A stretch of DNA of 64,000 nucleotides from Candidatus Yanofskybacteria bacterium CG10_big_fil_rev_8_21_14_0_10_36_16. Its GTDB lineage: Bacteria > Patescibacteriota > Minisyncoccia > 2-02-FULL-40-12 > IGHO2-01-FULL-4-A. The stretch is from contig PCXQ01000001.1 of NCBI GenBank assembly GCA_002794035.1, positions 3,256 through 67,255 on the forward strand. The letters run 5' to 3'. Positions 7,381 through 64,000 of this stretch are shown in pieces. The translations under genes were made by a program, and so were the position numbers. Position 1 is the stretch's first letter; the number at the start of each line of letters is the position of its first letter. The notes below the pieces were generated by a model. It did no database searches. It saw only the letters and a program-made list of their open reading frames with translations, and had not been told where the DNA came from.

Positions 7381-9423
7381 TTGTTTAAATTAAGCTCAAA
7401 ATTTAAGCCTACAGGCGACCAGCCCCAAGCAATAGATAGGCTGATACGAGGAATTAAAACAGGCGAAAAACACCAGACGCTTTTAGGCGTGACGGGTTCC
7501 GGCAAGACCTTTACTATTGCAAACGTAATCGCGAATGTTAAAAAGCCAACTCTTGTAATATCTCATAATAAGACCCTTGCAGCCCAGTTATATCAGGAGT
7601 TTAAAGAGTTTTTTCCGGAAAATGCCGTTCATTATTTTGTTAGTTACTATGATTATTATCAGCCAGAGGCCTATATTCCCCATTCAGACACGTATATTGA
7701 AAAAGATGCCAAAATAAACGAAGAAATAGACCGTCTTAGACATGCTTCAACCCAAGCTCTTATAAGTCGAGACGATGTTATTGTTGTGGCCTCGGTTTCT
7801 TGTATTTATAACCTTGGTTCTCCTGAAGATTATGATAATTTGTGTTTGGATGTTGTTGAGGGTCAAAAAGTAAGGCCGGGAGAAATTGCTGGGCATCTTG
7901 CCAGATTGCAATACGGATATGAACTTGAGCTTAAAAGAGGTACTTTCAGGAAATCAACAAAAGAAATAGAAGTAGCATCAGCTACCGGCGATAGGATTAC
8001 AAAAATAAAATTTAAGGGCAATGTTGTAGAAAAAATATCAGTTGCTGACAACGTTGAATTAGATGACATATTTTATAAAGATCCTAAGTTTGAGAAGGTT
8101 GTTGAAACAAAAATATTCCCTGCAAAGTATTGGATTGCCACAAATGACAAAACTGATTTGGCTATACAAAACATAAGGGCAGAACTGCAAAAACACATTA
8201 AAAAACTAGACAAGGAGGGGCTTTATGTAGAAGCAGAGCGTCTTAAATCAAGAACCGAATATGATATGGATATGATCAAAACCGCCGGTTATTGTCATGG
8301 AATTGAAAACTACTCAAGCCATCTTGATTTTAGAAAACCCGGAGAACCTCCATATACACTATTGAACTTTTTTTCCGCCAAAGGTGGATCCGCCTCCGGA
8401 GGAAAGACTAAGGGAGATTTTTTAACAATAATAGATGAATCTCACATGACTATTCCTCAAATAAGAGGTATGTATGGCGGGGATCATTCAAGGAAGACAA
8501 CATTGGTTAAGCATGGATTCCGCTTGCCTTCTGCCATTGATAATAGGCCTTTAAAGTTTGATGAGTTTGAAAAAAAAATTGATCAGAGAATATATGTATC
8601 TGCGACCCCTGGTCCCTATGAGCTTAAAAAAACAAAGAAAAGCAACGTTGTGGAGCAGTTTGTTAGACCCACAGGACTTCTTGATCCAGTTGTAGAAATT
8701 AAGCCAACAAAAAACCAGATCCCCCATTTAATATCTGAGATAAAGAAAAGAAACGATAATAACCAAAGAACTCTTGTCACAACCATTACAAAAAGGATGG
8801 CGGAAGACTTGTCAGAACATTTGGCGGACGAAGGCATAAAAGTAAATTATATTCATTCGGAGATCAAAACTTTAGATAGGCTTGAAATCATAAGGGATTT
8901 GCGTCTTGGCAGATACGATGTTGTTGTAGGGGTTAATTTGTTGAGAGAGGGTTTGGATTTGCCCGAGGTATCTCTTATCGCTATTCTTGATGCAGACAAA
9001 GAGGGCTTTTTAAGAAATGCGACAACCCTGGTTCAGACAATGGGCAGAGCAGCAAGGCATATTGAGGGAAGAATCATAATGTATGCTGACAAGATAACAA
9101 AATCTATGCAATTTGCTATTGATGAGACAGAAAGACGTAGAAAAATTCAAGAGACCCATAATAAAAAACACGGAATAACGCCAAAAACTATCATAAAGGA
9201 GATAGGTCAAAATTATTTGCCGGCAGGAAAAGGAAAAAAAGAAAAGATAAGCCGTTGGACTAGTTATGATCCTAAAGACGAAGAAGAACCAGAGAAAATG
9301 CTTCCTGAACAGCGTCTTGAATATCTTGAAAAAGAGATGAAGAATGCGGCTAAAAGACTACAATTTGAAAAGGCTATGATTATGCGTGAAGAGGTTTTAA
9401 GGTTAAGAAAAGAAGTTGGCTAG
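7381..9423 (+). CDS. uvrB: Excinuclease ABC subunit B
   Basis: TTG start right after an in-frame stop. FKLSSKFKPTGDQPQAI, GVTGSGKTF, full UvrB helicase motifs and the C-terminal UvrB/C interaction helix. Confidence 0.9.
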   Translation: MFKLSSKFKPTGDQPQAIDRLIRGIKTGEKHQTLLGVTGSGKTFTIANVIANVKKPTLVISHNKTLAAQLYQEFKEFFPENAVHYFVSYYDYYQPEAYIPHSDTYIEKDAKINEEIDRLRHASTQALISRDDVIVVASVSCIYNLGSPEDYDNLCLDVVEGQKVRPGEIAGHLARLQYGYELELKRGTFRKSTKEIEVASATGDRITKIKFKGNVVEKISVADNVELDDIFYKDPKFEKVVETKIFPAKYWIATNDKTDLAIQNIRAELQKHIKKLDKEGLYVEAERLKSRTEYDMDMIKTAGYCHGIENYSSHLDFRKPGEPPYTLLNFFSAKGGSASGGKTKGDFLTIIDESHMTIPQIRGMYGGDHSRKTTLVKHGFRLPSAIDNRPLKFDEFEKKIDQRIYVSATPGPYELKKTKKSNVVEQFVRPTGLLDPVVEIKPTKNQIPHLISEIKKRNDNNQRTLVTTITKRMAEDLSEHLADEGIKVNYIHSEIKTLDRLEIIRDLRLGRYDVVVGVNLLREGLDLPEVSLIAILDADKEGFLRNATTLVQTMGRAARHIEGRIIMYADKITKSMQFAIDETERRRKIQETHNKKHGITPKTIIKEIGQNYLPAGKGKKEKISRWTSYDPKDEEEPEKMLPEQRLEYLEKEMKNAAKRLQFEKAMIMREEVLRLRKEVG

Positions 9424-16794: not shown

Positions 16795-17139
16795 TTAATA
16801 ACGGCCTATTGAGAATTCTTCTATATATTTCATTAAATAATCCGATGCTGTAATTTGTTTTGATCGAAGTTCTGGGCAAAATTCTTTTACTCTCCTATCT
16901 ATGTGTTCACATGTTGGTATTAATTTTTTAAGTTCTTCCTGAACTGAATAATTTTCATCGTCAGTACAAACATCGTCTATTCTTTCTTTCAAGTCAAAAT
17001 ATTCGAATACAACTTGCAGTTTTCTTTCCAAAACCCGAACTTCATTATACAAAAAGAATATTGCTAATATTCCGATTGCTATGATGATTCCGAGGCTCAT
17101 GATCACCTCCTTGTAGGTGTGCTTGTTTAAAATTAACAA
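16795..17139 (-). CDS. Hypothetical small membrane protein
   Basis: 114 aa; one N-terminal TM helix. Confidence 0.3.
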   Translation of the reverse strand: MLILNKHTYKEVIMSLGIIIAIGILAIFFLYNEVRVLERKLQVVFEYFDLKERIDDVCTDDENYSVQEELKKLIPTCEHIDRRVKEFCPELRSKQITASDYLMKYIEEFSIGRY

Positions 17140-20289: not shown

Positions 20290-20526
20290 TTAAGGTTGTT
20301 TTTGTCTTTTAAGTAGTTTTTTTTCTAATTCCTGCAGATCATCTAAGGCCAATTCTAATTGTGGGAGTTCAAATTTTCTACCGCATTTGTTGCATTTATA
20401 ACCGTCACTGATGCCCGGTCCCATAACAAAGTCAAGCGGATTACTTGGCGGGGGTTGCACAACAAACACTTCCCAGATGTCACCGCCGCATTTACACTTT
20501 CCCCCATATTCTGGTTTCCTTGCCAT
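20290..20526 (-). CDS. Small zinc-ribbon protein
   Basis: RBS AGGAGGAGG then ATG (MARKPEYGGKCKCGG ... CNKCGRKF): two CxxC pairs. Confidence 0.4.
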   Translation of the reverse strand: MARKPEYGGKCKCGGDIWEVFVVQPPPSNPLDFVMGPGISDGYKCNKCGRKFELPQLELALDDLQELEKKLLKRQKQP

Positions 20527-43785: not shown

Positions 43786-44012
43786 AAAATTACAAAACCC
43801 GCCGCTAGGCGATGGATTTCTCCACCTGTTACCCTTTCGGGTAACAACCACTGCTGGTGCTCCTAAACGACGGGTTTAGTACCCAGCAGTGGTTTTTACG
43901 TCATACCTCAAATGTTGACATTTTGAGGGTTAGGCAATTTTTAGTTGTTAGACCAATATTATCACAAAACCTTGAAAATCTCCATAATTTTCGTTTTACT
44001 TAAATTAATACT

Positions 44013-50783: not shown

Positions 50784-50914
50784 TCTTGACTACATCACTG
50801 TAAGAAGGCCGAACATTTTCTTGGTTTTTTGTAGAAAATGTGAAGGTGTCGAAATAATTCAATTATTTCGACAGATGTTGTTGAAATTAAAATATAGAAT
50901 AAACAGTAGTTTTT

Positions 50915-50945
50915 AAAAACCCCGCCAAGGCGGGGTTTTTGATTT
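50915..50945. terminator. Bidirectional intrinsic terminator
   Basis: AAAAACCCCGCC-aa-GGCGGGGTTTTT. Confidence 0.75.
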
Positions 50946-54464: not shown

Positions 54465-54540
54465 TAAAACAATAGTGGTGGGATTTTTGAGTCTACTAAA
54501 AATATTATAAGTCCGATTATCGCGCCAACGGCCGATATCA
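54465..54540. repeat. Direct repeat copy 1 (76 bp, duplicate of the mraY 3' end)
   Basis: Identical in sequence to 54688-54763. Confidence 0.9.
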
Positions 54541-54687
54541 ACACAAAAGTCGCGGGCCCCTCCCTCGCTGGCTAGGGATCCACTCCCGCTCCTTGAAACC
54601 TTGCGGTTTCAATACTTCCACTATGGGGAAACACCCAGTTTCCCCAGCCCCCCTTCTGATTTCGGATGATATCAGTTTTTTGTTGAT
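54541..54687. other. 147-bp GC-rich structured insert between the repeat copies
   Basis: Minus-strand reading contains GGGGAAAC-UGGGU-GUUUCCCC and UUGAAACC-GCAA-GGUUUCAA (GNRA loop) hairpins closed by GGCUGG / CCAGC. Confidence 0.5.
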
Positions 54688-55760
54688 TAAAACAATAGTG
54701 GTGGGATTTTTGAGTCTACTAAAAATATTATAAGTCCGATTATCGCGCCAACGGCCGATATCATCCAAAATCTCATGGTGATTTGGGTTTCATGCCAGCC
54801 CTTGGCCTCGAAATGGTGGTGTATGGGAGTAGATAGGAAAATCTTTTTGCCTCGTAATTTTTTTGAGGTTATTTGAACTATCACAGATAAAGATTCACCA
54901 ACAAACACTAGGGCTATAATTGGTAAAAGCAAAGCGGTATTGGTTAGCATGGCAATAATACCCAGAACAACCCCCAAAGACATTGACCCCGTGTCGCCCA
55001 TAAAAAATTTGGCAGGATAAATATTGAACCACAAAAATGCTACAAGAGCTCCCATGATGGATGCTATAAACACAACGAGATCCATCCTTTCTTGAACAAA
55101 AGCTATTGCGCCATAAGCGGCAAACATGGTTAAGAAGGTTCCACCAGCAAGTCCATCAAGGCCATCAGTTTCATTTGCTGAAAATGCAGTCGCTACGATA
55201 ATAAATATAAAGAATGGAATGTACCACCACCCTATTGCCATGTCTCCTGCAAAAGGTATGTTTATTGAATTAAAGTCCAATTTAAAGAAGAACCACCATG
55301 CACCTCCTGTAGCAACAAGGAGGTAAAGACCTATTCTGTGGCGCATTTTAAGGCCTCCTCCGTTAGGTCCTATTCGAAATACTCCAAAAAGATCATCTGC
55401 CAACCCAAACATTGCAGCAACAAAAAGAGCGCCTAATGGCAACAGTGTCTGTGCACGAGATAGAAAATTCCAATCAGACCAAGTTCCGTTGTAAAGGCTG
55501 GCAAAAAAAGAAAAACCAAGAGTTACGATTATTACAGTTGCCCAAACTACTACCCCGCCCATAGTGGGTGTTCCTTCTTTTTTTTTGTGCAGTTTATTAA
55601 AAATGGGTGCCGAATCGCTTCCTTTTAATTGCTTGCCAAGATTGTTTTTTTGGATAACTTTATTCCATGCGGGTGTTAATATTATTGCAATAAAAAAAGA
55701 TAGTGTCGCCACCACGAAAACTCTGACAACGTTAAAAACAGTAAATGTTTCGCCTATCAA
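54687..55760 (-). CDS. mraY: Phospho-N-acetylmuramoyl-pentapeptide transferase
   Basis: GTPTMGG motif, 10-TM architecture, conserved Asp-rich loops. Confidence 0.85.
   Translation of the reverse strand: MIGETFTVFNVVRVFVVATLSFFIAIILTPAWNKVIQKNNLGKQLKGSDSAPIFNKLHKKKEGTPTMGGVVVWATVIIVTLGFSFFASLYNGTWSDWNFLSRAQTLLPLGALFVAAMFGLADDLFGVFRIGPNGGGLKMRHRIGLYLLVATGGAWWFFFKLDFNSINIPFAGDMAIGWWYIPFFIFIIVATAFSANETDGLDGLAGGTFLTMFAAYGAIAFVQERMDLVVFIASIMGALVAFLWFNIYPAKFFMGDTGSMSLGVVLGIIAMLTNTALLLPIIALVFVGESLSVIVQITSKKLRGKKIFLSTPIHHHFEAKGWHETQITMRFWMISAVGAIIGLIIFLVDSKIPPLLF
54688..54763. repeat. Direct repeat copy 2 (last 25 codons of mraY)
   Basis: Begins immediately after the mraY stop triplet at 54687-54689. 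Confidence 0.9.
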
Positions 55761-56891: not shown

Positions 56892-58307
56892 CTATTTTTT
56901 TTTAGACACTTGCAGATGCAATTCTTTTAATTGTTCTGATGTTAAGTCGCTTGGTGCGTCCATCATAAGGTCTCGGCCATCTCCGGTTTTGGTAAAAGCT
57001 ATGACTTCTCTAATGTTTGGTTCATTGGTAAAAATTGATATTAACCTATCAAAACCCCAAGCTATACCACCGTGGGGTGGAGCACCATATTCAAATGCTT
57101 CAAGCATGTGTCCGAAATTTTTAGATGCGGTATCAGCATCAAGGCCTATTATTTCAAAAACTTTTCTTAATATTTCAGGTTTGTGGCTTCTAATGCTTCC
57201 TCCCCCAATCTCAAGTCCGTTTAGAACAATGTCGTATTGGCTTGTGAGTATTTCGCCTATTTTTTCTTTTTTAAGTAGCCAATTCGTATGTGCTTTATTT
57301 GGCATTGAAAACGGATTATGAGTAAAAGTCCATTTCTTTTCCCCGCCAGAGTCGGGTCCGCCTTCGGCGGAAAAAAATGGGAAATCAATTACCCAACAAA
57401 AAGCCAAAAGATTTGGGTCTTCTTTGTCTTTGCGCAAATCAGGTCTGTCTGAATTATACTTTTCCATAGCTTCTTTATATGATATGCGCGGGAAAGGAAT
57501 CTCTTGAATTTTTTTGTCTGGTAGAAGATTTTTTACTATTTCAATTAACAGTTCCTCATTGACTTGCATAACATCTTCGCGTTCGACAAAAGACATTTCC
57601 ATGTCCATTTGGGTGAATTCGGGTTGTCTGTCCCCTCTGGTATCTTCGTCCCTGAAACATCTTGCCATTTGAAAATATTTTTCAATACCGGCGACCATTA
57701 AAAGTTGTTTATATTGCTGGGGTGCTTGGGGCAGAGCGTAAAATTTTCCTTCATGAACACGAGAAGGCACAACATAGTCTCGTGCTCCCTCCGGTGTAGA
57801 TTTTGATATTATCGGTGTTTCTACTTCTATAAAACCTTTCTCCGTTAGCCAATTTCTTATAAATTGACTGGTCTTGTGTCTTAATTGTAAATTTTTTCTC
57901 ATTCTTTCACGGCGTAAATCAAGATAGCGGTATTTCATTCTGTTTTCTTCTCCGATTTCTTTGCCATCAGAATCAATTTCAAAAGGCGGGGTTTTTGATT
58001 CGGAAAGTACTTCAAGCTCAATTGGTTTAAGTTCAACTTTGCCTGTTTCAATTTCTGGATTTACCATTTTTTCAGGCCTTTCAGTCATTTTGCCTTTTAT
58101 TTTGATAACCCATTCTGGTCTTAATTTCTCTGCTTTTTTATGGAGTTCCTCATCCTTGGGCGTAAAAACAACCTGAAGCAAACCGCTTCGGTCTCTAAGA
58201 TCAATAAAAATTAGTTTGCCGTGATCCCTTCTGGTGTGGACCCAGCCAGCAACCTCAACTTCTTTGTCTATGTTTTGGATTGTGTCCAATATAGAAATAC
58301 GTGTCAT
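56892..58307 (-). CDS. aspS: Aspartyl-tRNA synthetase, bacterial-type motifs but no GAD insertion domain
   Basis: OB-fold N-terminus; FRDEDTRGDRQPEFTQMD motif 2; SDRPDLR then, about 12 residues later, FCWVIDFPFF (GAD absent); motif 3 GGIAWGFDRL. Confidence 0.85.
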   Translation of the reverse strand: MTRISILDTIQNIDKEVEVAGWVHTRRDHGKLIFIDLRDRSGLLQVVFTPKDEELHKKAEKLRPEWVIKIKGKMTERPEKMVNPEIETGKVELKPIELEVLSESKTPPFEIDSDGKEIGEENRMKYRYLDLRRERMRKNLQLRHKTSQFIRNWLTEKGFIEVETPIISKSTPEGARDYVVPSRVHEGKFYALPQAPQQYKQLLMVAGIEKYFQMARCFRDEDTRGDRQPEFTQMDMEMSFVEREDVMQVNEELLIEIVKNLLPDKKIQEIPFPRISYKEAMEKYNSDRPDLRKDKEDPNLLAFCWVIDFPFFSAEGGPDSGGEKKWTFTHNPFSMPNKAHTNWLLKKEKIGEILTSQYDIVLNGLEIGGGSIRSHKPEILRKVFEIIGLDADTASKNFGHMLEAFEYGAPPHGGIAWGFDRLISIFTNEPNIREVIAFTKTGDGRDLMMDAPSDLTSEQLKELHLQVSKKK

Positions 58308-58418
58308 AAACTTAATTTTAATACAATATTACACACAAATCAAAATCCCGCACTTCTTGACTTAATTAGACAATACATGCAGGATTTTTTAAATATTACA
58401 CTAAGTTTTAAAAAATTT

Positions 58419-58859
58419 TTAAATGAGGTTTAATAATTGTGTCGGGCTATCTTTTAAATACATGCCCCTTATCTCCTTCTTTATTTTGTCTCTTAATTGT
58501 TTGGGCAACTCATTTTTAAACTGGTTGATAATCTCGGGTGCACAAAATAGATATATTTCGTTTATGGCTCCTTTTTTGTCTACTTCTAATATATAGCTAG
58601 CTGCTTTTTTTATAAACTCTTTATGTATCTTTTCTTTTGGTATTTCGCGGGAAGAACCGCTTGAAATAATCCCAGCAGTTTTTGATCTAATTTCTGAAAA
58701 CCCTTCGTTATCTGAATATTTGGGAGTTATTACTTCTATCTTATTTACTTCCTCTATTAAACCATTCTCTGCTAAATAAAAAATGCCGCTTTGATTGCCG
58801 AAAACAGCTAATAGTGTTGGGTTATTTTTAAATTGTTGAAATTGTTTTGGAATTTGCAT
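58419..58859 (-). CDS. Hypothetical protein
   Basis: 146 aa; no motif recognised. Confidence 0.3.
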   Translation of the reverse strand: MQIPKQFQQFKNNPTLLAVFGNQSGIFYLAENGLIEEVNKIEVITPKYSDNEGFSEIRSKTAGIISSGSSREIPKEKIHKEFIKKAASYILEVDKKGAINEIYLFCAPEIINQFKNELPKQLRDKIKKEIRGMYLKDSPTQLLNLI

Positions 58860-58880: not shown

Positions 58881-59246
58881 TTAAAAACTATAGTCTGGTG
58901 CTACTATTGGTGCGGGTGTAATTATGGGTTTTGGTGTGACGCTTTCATCTTTGAGGGGGTCTGTCCCTGCTTTTATTTCTTCCCCATCAAGAAATCCATC
59001 ACCATCGCTGTCAGGATTAAATGGGTCTGTATTATAATTAGATTCTTCAAAATCAGCAATGCCGTCAAAATCAGAATCTTTTGCTAGGGGGTTGTTGATA
59101 TTAGTCGTAGGGGTTTTGTTTAAGTTTAAATTGGTATTTGTGGCTTTATTGATTGTGTTATTGCTGGGTTTTTGTACTGCATCTGATACAAACAAAATAG
59201 CTACAAAAATGATCCCAGCCGATATTGTTATTAATATCCCCTTCAT
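58881..59246 (-). CDS. Secreted protein with thrombospondin-type-3-like Ca-binding repeats
   Basis: Signal anchor; DSDFDGIADFEE, DPFNPDSDGDGFLDGEE (DxDxDG). Confidence 0.45.
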   Translation of the reverse strand: MKGILITISAGIIFVAILFVSDAVQKPSNNTINKATNTNLNLNKTPTTNINNPLAKDSDFDGIADFEESNYNTDPFNPDSDGDGFLDGEEIKAGTDPLKDESVTPKPIITPAPIVAPDYSF

Positions 59247-59340
59247 GTAATAAATATGCCAAAAATTAAGCTAAATTTCAAGTCACTCTAAATATTTATT
59301 ATGTTCTTATAACATTAAATTATGGTTAAGAAAAAGTAAT

Positions 59341-59640
59341 GGCCCCGCACTTCTTGGTGCGGGGCACGGGGTTGGAGGTTGGGGTCGCCTAGTGAAGGCG
59401 GCCGGCGTGAATGGGTTCAAACCGGATCGGATGAGCCCACAGAGATTCGATCGCGACGCTCCCAAGAGCTCGCGCCTCCTCGGACGAGATTGCCAGAAGC
59501 CCCAAGGGAACCTCCGGAAAAGACTGTTCCTCCTCCTCTGGAGTTCTTCGGCCTCGCCGTTTCTCGTTTCCCCTGACCTTGCGAGGCCAGGAGACATCAT
59601 CTCTCTGCATCTTCTGCATGGGAAATCCTCCTACTATTTA
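59341..59640. other. About 300-bp GC-rich island (candidate structured RNA or foreign fragment)
   Basis: Sharp GC jump; ORFs in four frames overlap one another. Begins with the perfect hairpin CCCCGCAC-ttcttg-GTGCGGGG. An RBS-like AGGAGGA then ATG lies on the minus strand. Confidence 0.3.
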
Positions 59641-59739
59641 AGTGTAGCATAATTAAAATGGCTTGTCAAATATTAAAAAATGTGGTATTTTAAAATAATT
59701 AAAAAACCAGCCTCTTTTTAAAAAGCTGGTTTTTATCGA

Positions 59740-60108
59740 TTATTCCCATATATTTTCTAATTCTGCCAATATCTCATCAGGAATAGGTATTGCTTTGCCC
59801 ACAGGACTTATGCCGGGGTATCTCCATGCAGATATTATTGTTTTTTTATTTGTTAATGGTATTTCATTTTGTATTTTTCGTTTTAAATTTTTATTTTCCT
59901 GATACATTACCCAAATTTCCTGAGGAGTTTTGCTTGTAGCTTTTTGCATAACCGCCGTGGTCCCAGTCGCTACCCCCTCTTCAGTGCGATGAGGATGTCT
60001 TACCACTCTTTTTATTAAGCTTTCTGATATACCATAATAAACCATCTTGTCTTTAACATGGTTGGTCCACTTATATTTTTCGTTGTCTTTAGGTAATTTA
60101 AATTGCAT
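59740..60108 (-). CDS. Hypothetical protein
   Basis: 122 aa. Confidence 0.3.
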   Translation of the reverse strand: MQFKLPKDNEKYKWTNHVKDKMVYYGISESLIKRVVRHPHRTEEGVATGTTAVMQKATSKTPQEIWVMYQENKNLKRKIQNEIPLTNKKTIISAWRYPGISPVGKAIPIPDEILAELENIWE

Positions 60109-60180
60109 GTTGTTGGGGTCTTTAATAGTAAATAGATAAATATAGATTAAATGATTTTGTTGTTTTCGTAAACTTAATAA

Positions 60181-60208
60181 TTAAAAACCCCGCCTAGGCG
60201 GGGTTTTT
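60181..60208. terminator. Intrinsic terminator (same family)
   Basis: AAAAACCCCGCC-ta-GGCGGGGTTTTT. Confidence 0.75.
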
Positions 60209-60210
60209 GT

Positions 60211-60699
60211 TCAATCACAATACTCATATGAAAGATTATTATATTCTTCAGTGGTGTAAAGATAAATACCGTCTTTATGCCACAAAACAAAATTCGATAT
60301 GCCCGAATCAAGAGCCAGCTTACTGCAAATTGTGCAATATGGTTTGCCTGATCTTAATATGTTGCCGTTATTATCAATCCTGACAAAAAAGATGGTAGAG
60401 TTTCTAAGCGCTTTCTGTGAATGGCTGTTTATAGCTTCAAATATTGCTCTTTGTTCGGCATGCATACAGCACGTTTTGTCGGTTACCTTTTTATGCAACT
60501 TTGTTTTATCGCAAGAACATCTGCGTTGCGAATCAATATTCCCCGGAGGAGAATTATATCCTTGTCCTATAACTATGCCGCATTTTACAATTACGCTCCC
60601 GCATTTTGATCGCGAGCACGTTGATTTAGTAGCCACACTAGCGGCAGCTTCAAACCATTTTTTTAATGGCATTTCTTCTTCTTTGCTTAGTTTTTTCAT
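60211..60699 (-). CDS. Deoxycytidylate (dCMP) deaminase, ComEB-like
   Basis: CMHAEQRAI (HAE) and YCTICSK (PCxxC) zinc ligands. Confidence 0.75.
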   Translation of the reverse strand: MKKLSKEEEMPLKKWFEAAASVATKSTCSRSKCGSVIVKCGIVIGQGYNSPPGNIDSQRRCSCDKTKLHKKVTDKTCCMHAEQRAIFEAINSHSQKALRNSTIFFVRIDNNGNILRSGKPYCTICSKLALDSGISNFVLWHKDGIYLYTTEEYNNLSYEYCD

Positions 60700-60779: not shown

Positions 60780-60835
60780 CCCCACACTCATGCATGAGTG
60801 TGGGGATTAAAAACCCCGCCTAGGCGGGGTTTTTA
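60780..60835. terminator. Tandem hairpins: 26-nt perfect palindrome plus family terminator
   Basis: CCCCACACTCATGCATGAGTGTGGGG, then AAAAACCCCGCC-ta-GGCGGGGTTTTT (identical to 60181-60208). Confidence 0.7.
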
Positions 60836-63337: not shown

Positions 63338-63369
63338 AAATTTGTATTTTAATTTATTGTTTATTTAAT

Positions 63370-63595
63370 TTCGACCTTCTCTCAAGGTATCACTTTTCCG
63401 CAAGAATTTCTATTCCTGCGTCATGTGGCACTTTTTATCCATTCGACTCCTCCTCGACAAGCTCGGAGCCGCTCAGGATAAACGTTGTCTCGGTCTAACG
63501 CTCGTGACAACGTTTATATCCCAGTACCAGAACCTGCGGTTCGGTACGGGACTGCACTCGCTAAATGTAGCTATATAAAATTTCAGCTCGCTTGT
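63370..63595. ncRNA. Candidate structured ncRNA of unknown class, downstream of secA
   Basis: GC-rich with no ORF of 60 aa or more. Perfect 12-bp hairpin ATAAACGTTGTC-tcggtctaacgctcg-TGACAACGTTTAT, plus CCCAGTACC...GGTACGGG and further stems. Confidence 0.3.
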
Positions 63596-63598
63596 TTT

Positions 63599-64000
63599 TT
63601 ATCCTTTATGATGAGGAGCATTTATCATTCCGCACTTTTTCCATTTATATAGTTGTCCTGTATTAGGATTGGTTGCTCCGCATGGACAGGGATCGTTTCG
63701 GCCTACCTTTTGAGTATTTTTGATCGGTTTAGAATTGTTTTGGTTTTGGTTGTTTGGATTTTGAGTTTGGGGTTTTGGATTTTCAAAAATGTTTGCTCTC
63801 CCTTCCTTTGTCTCTTGTCTCTGGGGTTTTTTTAATATTGTTACCTTAAATATTGTATTTGCGACTTGAGTACTTATTGTTTGTTGTAATTCTTTAAACA
63901 ATCTTTGCCCTTCAACTTTATACTCAACCAGAGGATCTTTTTGGCCATAAGCACGAAGGCGAACAGAATCACGAAGCTGTTCCATTGTTTCAATGTGATC
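63599..64000 (-). CDS. secA: Preprotein translocase SecA, C-terminal part (N-terminus off window)
   Basis: LRAYGQKDPLVEYK wing/helical region and C-terminal zinc finger DPCPCGA...KKCG. The frame continues to the window edge. Confidence 0.8.
   Translation of the reverse strand, partial: DHIETMEQLRDSVRLRAYGQKDPLVEYKVEGQRLFKELQQTISTQVANTIFKVTILKKPQRQETKEGRANIFENPKPQTQNPNNQNQNNSKPIKNTQKVGRNDPCPCGATNPNTGQLYKWKKCGMINAPHHKG

Follow-up and report, generated by a model that had tools for sequence, protein, structure and literature searches.

A sharply bounded GC-rich island among minus-strand genes

The DNA analysed here, referred to as the window, is a stretch of 64,000 nucleotides from a Candidatus Yanofskybacteria (Parcubacteria/CPR) MAG, and all coordinates are positions in it. 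The feature under study is a 293-bp GC-rich island surrounded by genes that all lie on the minus strand, in the order dCMP deaminase, p122 (122 aa), island, a 121-aa TSP3-repeat protein, a 146-aa baeRF/host-attachment-like protein, and AspRS. The island unit occupies the space between the terminator of p122, upstream, and the promoter of the downstream TSP3-repeat/baeRF-like gene pair. The next gene on the minus strand starts 95 nt after the island terminator, and its own promoter-like sites lie just ahead of its ATG (59281..59253). For p122, a match to DUF4258 was seen at an E value of 0.07 only. Elsewhere in this neighbourhood, an identical 29-bp palindromic terminator with a AAAAACCCCGCCTAGGCGGGGTTTTT core is present at 60180-60208 and 60806-60834, bracketing the dCMP deaminase gene, and a near-copy of it lies at 50913-50942.

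The initial annotation had described a jump in GC content far above the background, and this was borne out: the island has a GC content of 60.8%, versus 36.1% for the entire window, and its flanks fall to 20% (59247-59341) and 23% (59635-59739), which gives it sharp edges. It contains the GC-richest 150-nt stretch of the 64 kb (maximum, 0.65); the runner-up, at 54487-54705, reaches 0.57. The edges coincide with the limits of the predicted minus-strand transcript (Table 1). The GC content at the three codon positions of the 76-codon open reading frame (ORF) within the island (0.66/0.47/0.64) is far from that of host genes (0.46/0.33/0.31), and the DNA is therefore compositionally foreign to the host genome.

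Table 1. Positions of the island, its predicted signals and its open reading frames in the window
Feature	Coordinates	Strand	Remarks
GC-rich island, entire	59342..59634	none	60.8% GC, sharp edges
Terminator of upstream gene p122	59734..59702	-	sequence signal
Sigma-70-type promoter (predicted)	59641..59669	-	10/12 matches plus TG, in AT-rich, host-like DNA
Shine-Dalgarno AGGAGGA	59626..59632	-	6 nt (TTTCCC) ahead of ATG
76-codon ORF	59389..59619	-	ATG 59619..59617, TAG 59391..59389
Intrinsic-terminator-like hairpin	59328..59365	-	GCCCCGCAC-CAAGAA-GUGCGGGGC (59365..59342), then CAUUACUUUUUC
ORF, 97 aa	59307..59600	-	
ORF, 65 aa	59379..59576	+	
ORF, 86 aa	59392..59652	+	

The island sequence is real, reproducible, and stable in the population. 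It was recovered at 100% identity from JGI 3300004210, where the locus forms a 24-kb contig, from JGI 3300004209, from Logan SRR6240789, and from the MEGAHIT assembly ENA ERZ27293414, and it was partially covered in ENA ERZ27293412 and JGI 3300004208. Crystal Geyser is the origin of the samples behind JGI 3300004208 to 3300004210 and SRR6240789. Both of its junctions are spanned at 100% identity in at least four samples by contigs from three pipelines, and the occurrence of byte-identical copies in at least four independently assembled samples indicates that the island is no assembly artefact. Within the island, the short contigs of ERZ27293412 and JGI 3300004208 break off (at 59455 and 59454, respectively), as might be expected of an assembly chimera or a contaminant insert; however, the junction-spanning contigs leave that explanation with a practically negligible probability. 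A third contig, from JGI 3300025850, ends at 59654, just before the island, and taken together these breaks suggest either a drop in coverage or a branch in the assembly graph at the GC-rich stretch. For the pair at 59454/59455 our guess is that a coverage drop is the simplest explanation.

The copy in ERZ27293414 belongs to a strain variant that differs from the window only by a 31-bp indel near 60241, approximately 600 bp from the island. The extra 31 bp, which are also carried by the strain variant in JGI 3300025850 (contig positions 2517-2547 and 1151-1181, respectively), lie near the 3' end of the dCMP deaminase gene and yield a product of 160 aa rather than 162 aa, the rest being identical. 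The population copies of the island itself are all identical and offer no variant for a comparison of synonymous and nonsynonymous changes.

Minus-strand signals and the 76-codon reading frame

At the right edge of the island, the minus strand carries a promoter-like site that consists of a -35 element TTGACA (59669..59664), a 17-nt spacer, and an extended -10 element TGc-TACACT (59649..59641). The predicted transcription start, near 59634, is the exact beginning of the GC-rich DNA. This site is the sole one with a perfect TTGACA among the 13 listed sites with at least 10 of 12 matches in 20 kb. Promoter-like sites as a class were not enriched over shuffled sequence in those 20 kb (73 versus 64.9 +/- 8.0), and we estimate that the chance of finding one in the right 40 nt and on the right strand would be about 1%. 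On the plus strand there was no promoter-like site ahead of the island, and the plus-strand copy of the hairpin described below has no T-run.

Between the predicted start and the ATG lies a 15-nt leader bearing a strong Shine-Dalgarno sequence. The initial annotation had drawn attention to a minus-strand AGGAGGA-ATG ahead of a 76-aa Arg-rich ORF, and we recovered exactly this arrangement, with 10 Arg residues in the product. Such a Shine-Dalgarno sequence is rare in this genome: AGGAGG precedes the first ATG in none of 38 long host ORFs, and a weak site precedes it in 5 of the 38. Two small host genes (78 aa at 20526 and 101 aa at 17097) are also preceded by a strong Shine-Dalgarno sequence, and the signal therefore appears to be usable in this genome. 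Across the gene starts of the window (for example, aspS at 58307 and the baeRF-like gene at 58859), most genes have no Shine-Dalgarno site, and approximately one-quarter have a -10-like hexamer that ends 4 to 11 nt before the ATG, which, given the predicted start codons, hints that some mRNAs may be leaderless.

At the other edge, the perfect hairpin described in the initial annotation is indeed present, at 59343-59364, and extends to a 9-bp stem with eight G-C pairs, GCCCCGCAC-ttcttg-GTGCGGGGC (59342-59365). Read on the minus strand, it begins 24 nt past the stop codon and, having the most G-C pairs, ranks first among 28 terminator-like sites in 20 kb; its U-tract does not directly abut the stem. 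Host terminators in the window are built differently, with an A-run, CCCCGCC-loop-GGCGGGG, and a T-run. The minus strand thus presents a ribosome-binding site with a start codon, an open frame, and a stop codon, all within one promoter-terminator unit, as expected of a protein-coding gene.

The predicted product (MQKMQRDDVSWPRKVRGNEKRRGRRTPEEEEQSFPEVPLGLLAISSEEARALGSVAIESLWAHPIRFEPIHAGRLH) is a protein of 8.8 kDa with a pI of 8.3; 10 Lys or Arg residues fall within residues 1 to 26 and are followed by an acidic stretch. One helix, described as amphipathic, is predicted at residues 46 to 62. The AlphaFold single-sequence model, with one helix, was of low confidence (pLDDT, 66; pTM, 0.18). We read the product as basic at its N terminus and largely disordered; the Arg-rich segment, which is the only lead to a function, might point to nucleic acid binding, although this is a guess. 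The predicted tryptic peptides of the product are DDVSWPR, TPEEEEQSFPEVPLGLLAISSEEAR, ALGSVAIESLWAHPIR, and FEPIHAGR.

Statistical evidence on whether this frame is coding points in both directions. A complete ATG-initiated ORF of at least 76 codons arose on a given strand in 2% of dinucleotide shuffles, and an ORF of at least 70 codons with GGAGG or AGGAG 4 to 16 nt upstream arose in 0.085% of 20,000 such shuffles. The codon-position GC content, which the initial annotation had proposed as a test of coding, differs from that of host genes as described above. The period-3 signal of the ORF was not significant (P = 0.13). In a generic codon log-odds model, trained on GC-rich metagenomic ORFs, the score of the ORF corresponded to the 5.6th percentile of true coding segments and to the 83rd percentile of off-frame ones; the antisense frame scored equally. 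The amino acid composition of the product falls between those of real GC-rich proteins and random ORFs, slightly closer to the former; its Arg content of 13% is the value expected from random translation of the island DNA. Among the possibilities raised previously, a protein gene agrees best with the promoter, Shine-Dalgarno sequence, ATG, stop codon, and terminator, all of which are on the minus strand, but it gains nothing from homology (see below) and the codon statistics are ambiguous.

Gene callers also disagree on the locus. The ORF is already in GenBank as the hypothetical protein COV29_00320 (PJE51591.1) of a Candidatus Yanofskybacteria MAG, and it is called both by NCBI and in JGI 3300004210; the ENA and Logan annotations call no gene at the island, and JGI 3300004209 and JGI 3300004208 place a call on the opposite strand. 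This plus-strand call covers 59256-59576 (positions 677-997 of the JGI 3300004209 contig and 1-199 of the JGI 3300004208 contig), and its stored product is 11 residues long, MPKIKLNFKSL followed by a stop; we would guess that it came from a frameshift-tolerant gene caller.

Structured-RNA tests of the island and of other segments

The initial annotation had taken four overlapping ORFs in different frames as typical of a structured RNA. The four ORFs (97, 76, 65, and 86 aa, on both strands) are all there; however, each of the six frames has only zero to four stop codons across the island, and the overlap follows from the scarcity of stop codons in GC-rich DNA. Many open frames in a GC-rich island of an AT-rich genome do not, taken alone, indicate a structured RNA. 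A 13-mer of the island, CCCGCACTTCTTG (59344-59356), does recur in the window as had been noted, although at 58347-58359 rather than at 58345-58357. When the remaining window was shuffled in 1-kb blocks with dinucleotide composition preserved, at least one 13-mer common to the island was found in 70 of 400 shuffles (17.5%); the recurrence is compatible with chance, and we rejected it as a meaningful duplication.

The initial annotation had recognised no RNase P, tmRNA, or SRP motifs. The Rfam families compared with the island included these three as well as 6S, T-box, riboswitches, group II intron domains, and CsrB/Rsm. A scan of the entire window with Rfam 15 at gathering thresholds, a check that had been proposed from the outset, returned no match within the island, and ARAGORN found no tRNA or tmRNA there. 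At an E value of up to 10, a scan of 59100-59900 gave only chance-level matches in the island, far below gathering: ClpQY_promoter at 21 bits (gathering threshold, 42) on the terminator hairpin, RF_site5 at 15.2 bits, and LPR69 at 13.3 bits. A CsrB/Rsm-like GGA sponge was considered and rejected, since, by eye, GGA is about as frequent as composition predicts and lies outside the predicted hairpin loops; no Csr/Rsm family of Rfam matched the island.

Folding of the unit with its terminator gave z scores, relative to dinucleotide shuffles, of -2.6 to -3.0 on the minus strand and -1.9 to -2.0 on the plus strand. When the terminator hairpin was left out, the 267-nt core scored -1.33 (minus) and -0.43 (plus), and we attribute the excess folding of the whole minus-strand unit to that hairpin. 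The core value falls within the range of 36 random GC-rich control segments (-2.9 to +1.4). A LOOT RNA (RF03000) at 43811-43936 on the minus strand, which we took as our positive control for structure, scored 86 bits over the full model length, with a z score of -7.33. The LOOT RNA resembles the island in that its GC enrichment does not extend past a short unit that is transcribed independently and has its own terminator; in contrast to the island core, it folds far beyond its shuffles and is matched by a model. The structured-RNA reading of the island is weak.

These results bear on the proposal that the island is a lineage-specific small RNA, possibly of dual function, which would use the same promoter and terminator and in which the ORF would be incidental or secondary. 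The match between the GC-rich stretch and the predicted transcript, within its GC-poor flanks, is in keeping with such an RNA, as are the stronger folding of the minus strand than of the plus strand when the terminator is included, the ambiguous coding statistics, and the lack of a protein homologue. GC enrichment is, moreover, a classic signature of RNA genes in AT-rich genomes, on which a published search approach is built (PMC6429828). However, the fold of the core is ordinary for GC-rich DNA and far weaker than those of the LOOT RNA and of two further segments of the same window, downstream of secA (-5.7) and of mraY (-4.5); no Rfam family, tRNA, or tmRNA was found; a full-length ORF behind a strong, well-spaced Shine-Dalgarno sequence is the 0.085% event among shuffles noted above; and no related sequence turned up among 80 Parcubacteria loci or in any of the collections scanned. 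We regard a small RNA as unlikely.

Dual-function small RNAs that encode small proteins include SgrS/SgrT, RNAIII/hld, and SR1/SR1P. Like the island, these consist of an independent transcript of approximately 300 nt (predicted in the case of the island) with a small ORF led by a Shine-Dalgarno sequence and with a terminator; unlike them, the island has no identified base-pairing target, conserved structure, or homologue, and on this comparison a dual function would be only a formal possibility.

The position of the island also brings to mind a cis-acting 5' leader or attenuator that would act through the terminator hairpin on the downstream TSP3-repeat, baeRF-like, and aspS genes. The order of elements has the appearance of such a leader: a promoter is followed by approximately 290 nt of GC-rich RNA, a terminator, a further 95 nt, and then a gene on the same strand, and an aminoacyl-tRNA synthetase gene lies further downstream. 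Nevertheless, no T-box, riboswitch, or leader family of Rfam matched, inspection of the sequence and fold gave no evident antiterminator alternative, and the downstream gene has promoter-like sites of its own. In addition, known leader peptides are far shorter than 76 codons. We consider this a very remote prospect.

Both of the comparison segments are of interest in themselves. At 63338-63600 on the minus strand, between the 3' end of secA and a gene for a 94-aa protein, there are four or five clean hairpins; the minimum free energy is -78.2 kcal/mol, versus -54.5 +/- 4.2 kcal/mol in shuffles (z score, -5.66), and no Rfam family matched at an E value of up to 1. As an unannotated structured RNA, this segment is a more convincing candidate than the island. 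The second segment (54467-54765; GC-rich core, 54542-54689) is a 148-bp patch with 52% GC directly downstream of mraY (54687..55760, minus strand). On either side of it stands one copy of a perfect 75-bp direct repeat, a duplication of the final 25 codons of mraY. The patch folds into a multihairpin structure with a closing stem, with z scores of -4.49 on the plus strand and -2.9 on the minus strand and no Rfam match. The spacing of 304 bp is found also in three k141 ENA/JGI assemblies; other JGI contigs break within the repeat. The patch looks like either an insertion at the 3' end of the gene or a small structured RNA.

Relatives, origin, and interpretation of the island

No relative of the product or of the DNA of the island was found in the collections searched. 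The 76-aa product retrieved itself only, both from 5.8 billion clustered proteins by a word-indexed search and from 1.84 billion representatives by a full HMMER scan, and no family among the Pfam, NCBIfam, PHROGs, and PADLOC profiles matched it at an E value of up to 1. Sequences from the PDB gave chance-level matches (E values of 0.4 and 1.7), the best of which fell on a low-complexity stretch. The other five frames of the island, searched as one concatenated protein query, gave no match. Clear protein homology of one frame, which the initial annotation had set against its RNA reading, was thus seen in none of the six frames; its alternative of a foreign gene fragment is unlikely, given a complete ORF and six frames that all lack a match.

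At the DNA level, a blastn search in distant mode found nothing in phages and a single 35-nt chance match in plasmids, and viral and metagenome contigs yielded seed-only chance matches in an 18-mer scan and nothing in protein-pattern scans. We also compared 80 aspS loci from GTDB species of Parcubacteria, in which AspRS is 59 to 69% identical to that encoded here; none of them had a homologue of the island, and the neighbouring genes were not shared either. The closest AspRS found anywhere is 72% identical, and the lineage is without a sequenced close relative.

Some specific identities were considered. A type II antitoxin pairing with the DUF4258-like p122 was rejected because the two genes are separated by the p122 terminator and a promoter of the island's own, and because the product matched no antitoxin family in the profile searches. 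The marks of a mobile insertion (an insertion sequence, MITE, integrative element, or integron cassette) were not seen: apart from AT-rich noise, the flanks contained neither direct nor inverted repeats, and there was no att-like site and no mobility gene among the neighbouring genes listed above.

Two further known classes of locus are close to the island. In one AT-rich genome, approximately one-third of the long GC-rich intergenic regions proved to be unannotated protein genes and approximately one-quarter held short ORFs, so that more than half of the surveyed regions were protein coding or carried short ORFs (PMC6429828). Like those short ORFs, the island is a GC-rich patch in an AT-rich genome in which a short ORF bearing translation signals, and no structured RNA, was recognised, and the outcome of that survey fits the interpretation of the island as a small gene. 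The short ORFs and upstream ORFs of the survey were recognised by their conservation across genomes (PMC6429828), whereas the island ORF has no relative; at 76 codons it is also longer than typical upstream ORFs, and its codons have a composition foreign to the host. The second class comprises horizontally acquired single-gene islets (ORFans), which the island resembles in its atypical GC content (GC3 of 0.64 versus 0.31 in the host), its sharp edges, and its location between core genes. Unlike acquired islets, it came with no donor, mobility gene, flanking repeats, or att-like sites that we could find, and its promoter appears to be AT-rich, host-like DNA.

From these observations we favour the interpretation that the island is an orphan, compositionally foreign small protein gene, led by a Shine-Dalgarno sequence and equipped with its own promoter and terminator, and we give it about an even chance of being correct. 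The signals themselves, their order and spacing, the foreign composition, and the reproducible sequence are observed; expression and translation of the 76-codon ORF are what we infer from them. In the envisaged scheme, the sigma-70-type promoter in AT-rich host DNA would start transcription at the right edge of the island, and the transcript would be a monocistronic minus-strand unit whose short leader carries a strong Shine-Dalgarno sequence. The 76-codon ORF would then give rise to an 8.8-kDa protein with an Arg-rich N terminus, an acidic linker, and one amphipathic helix, and the GC-rich hairpin past the stop codon would end the transcript. The gene would either have been acquired horizontally and recently, its source being a GC-rich donor not yet sampled or a mobile element, or have arisen as a young ORF on inserted GC-rich DNA. 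If this interpretation is correct, the island adds one more orphan small gene of foreign composition to a reduced CPR genome and is mildly useful as an example of how small genes are taken up or created in such genomes. Its significance would grow with transcript or peptide data that revealed a regulatory RNA or RNA-binding peptide confined to this lineage, or with the discovery of a donor that identified the host of the bacterium.

A different explanation of the same foreign composition is that the island is foreign DNA that was captured and is inert, or else a proto-gene, either young or in decay; it may be transcribed but would yield no product under selection. It is an orphan at both the DNA and protein levels in every frame, its composition is far from that of the host, the amino acids of the product are near random translation, the structural model is of low confidence, the gene callers disagree, and a similar GC-rich islet with a single ORF lies beside aspS in another genome (see below). 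Against this stand the intact ORF, the canonical spacings of the promoter, Shine-Dalgarno sequence, and terminator, the absence of flanking direct or inverted repeats, and the identity of the island in every sample and in the strain variant, although all of these represent one population. On balance, we think inert DNA improbable.

Also rather improbable, in our judgment, is that the island is something other than a conventional gene in either of two ways: a functional or dual-function RNA restricted to this lineage of episymbiotic CPR bacteria, or a recently captured DNA fragment that has become wired to a host promoter. In the latter case, the source might be an unsampled partner, the host organism, or a mobile element, and the island would offer a glimpse of a gene being born or acquired in a reduced genome.

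The other islet was found in a Parcubacteria genome with a GC content of 37% (CAZKFS010000003.1, positions 7400-7770). It spans approximately 370 bp with 50 to 59% GC, lies directly downstream of aspS, and contains a minus-strand ORF of 100 aa, which matches no Pfam family and is not similar to the 76-aa ORF. The presence of this comparable islet next to aspS means that GC-rich islets with a single ORF recur in Parcubacteria.
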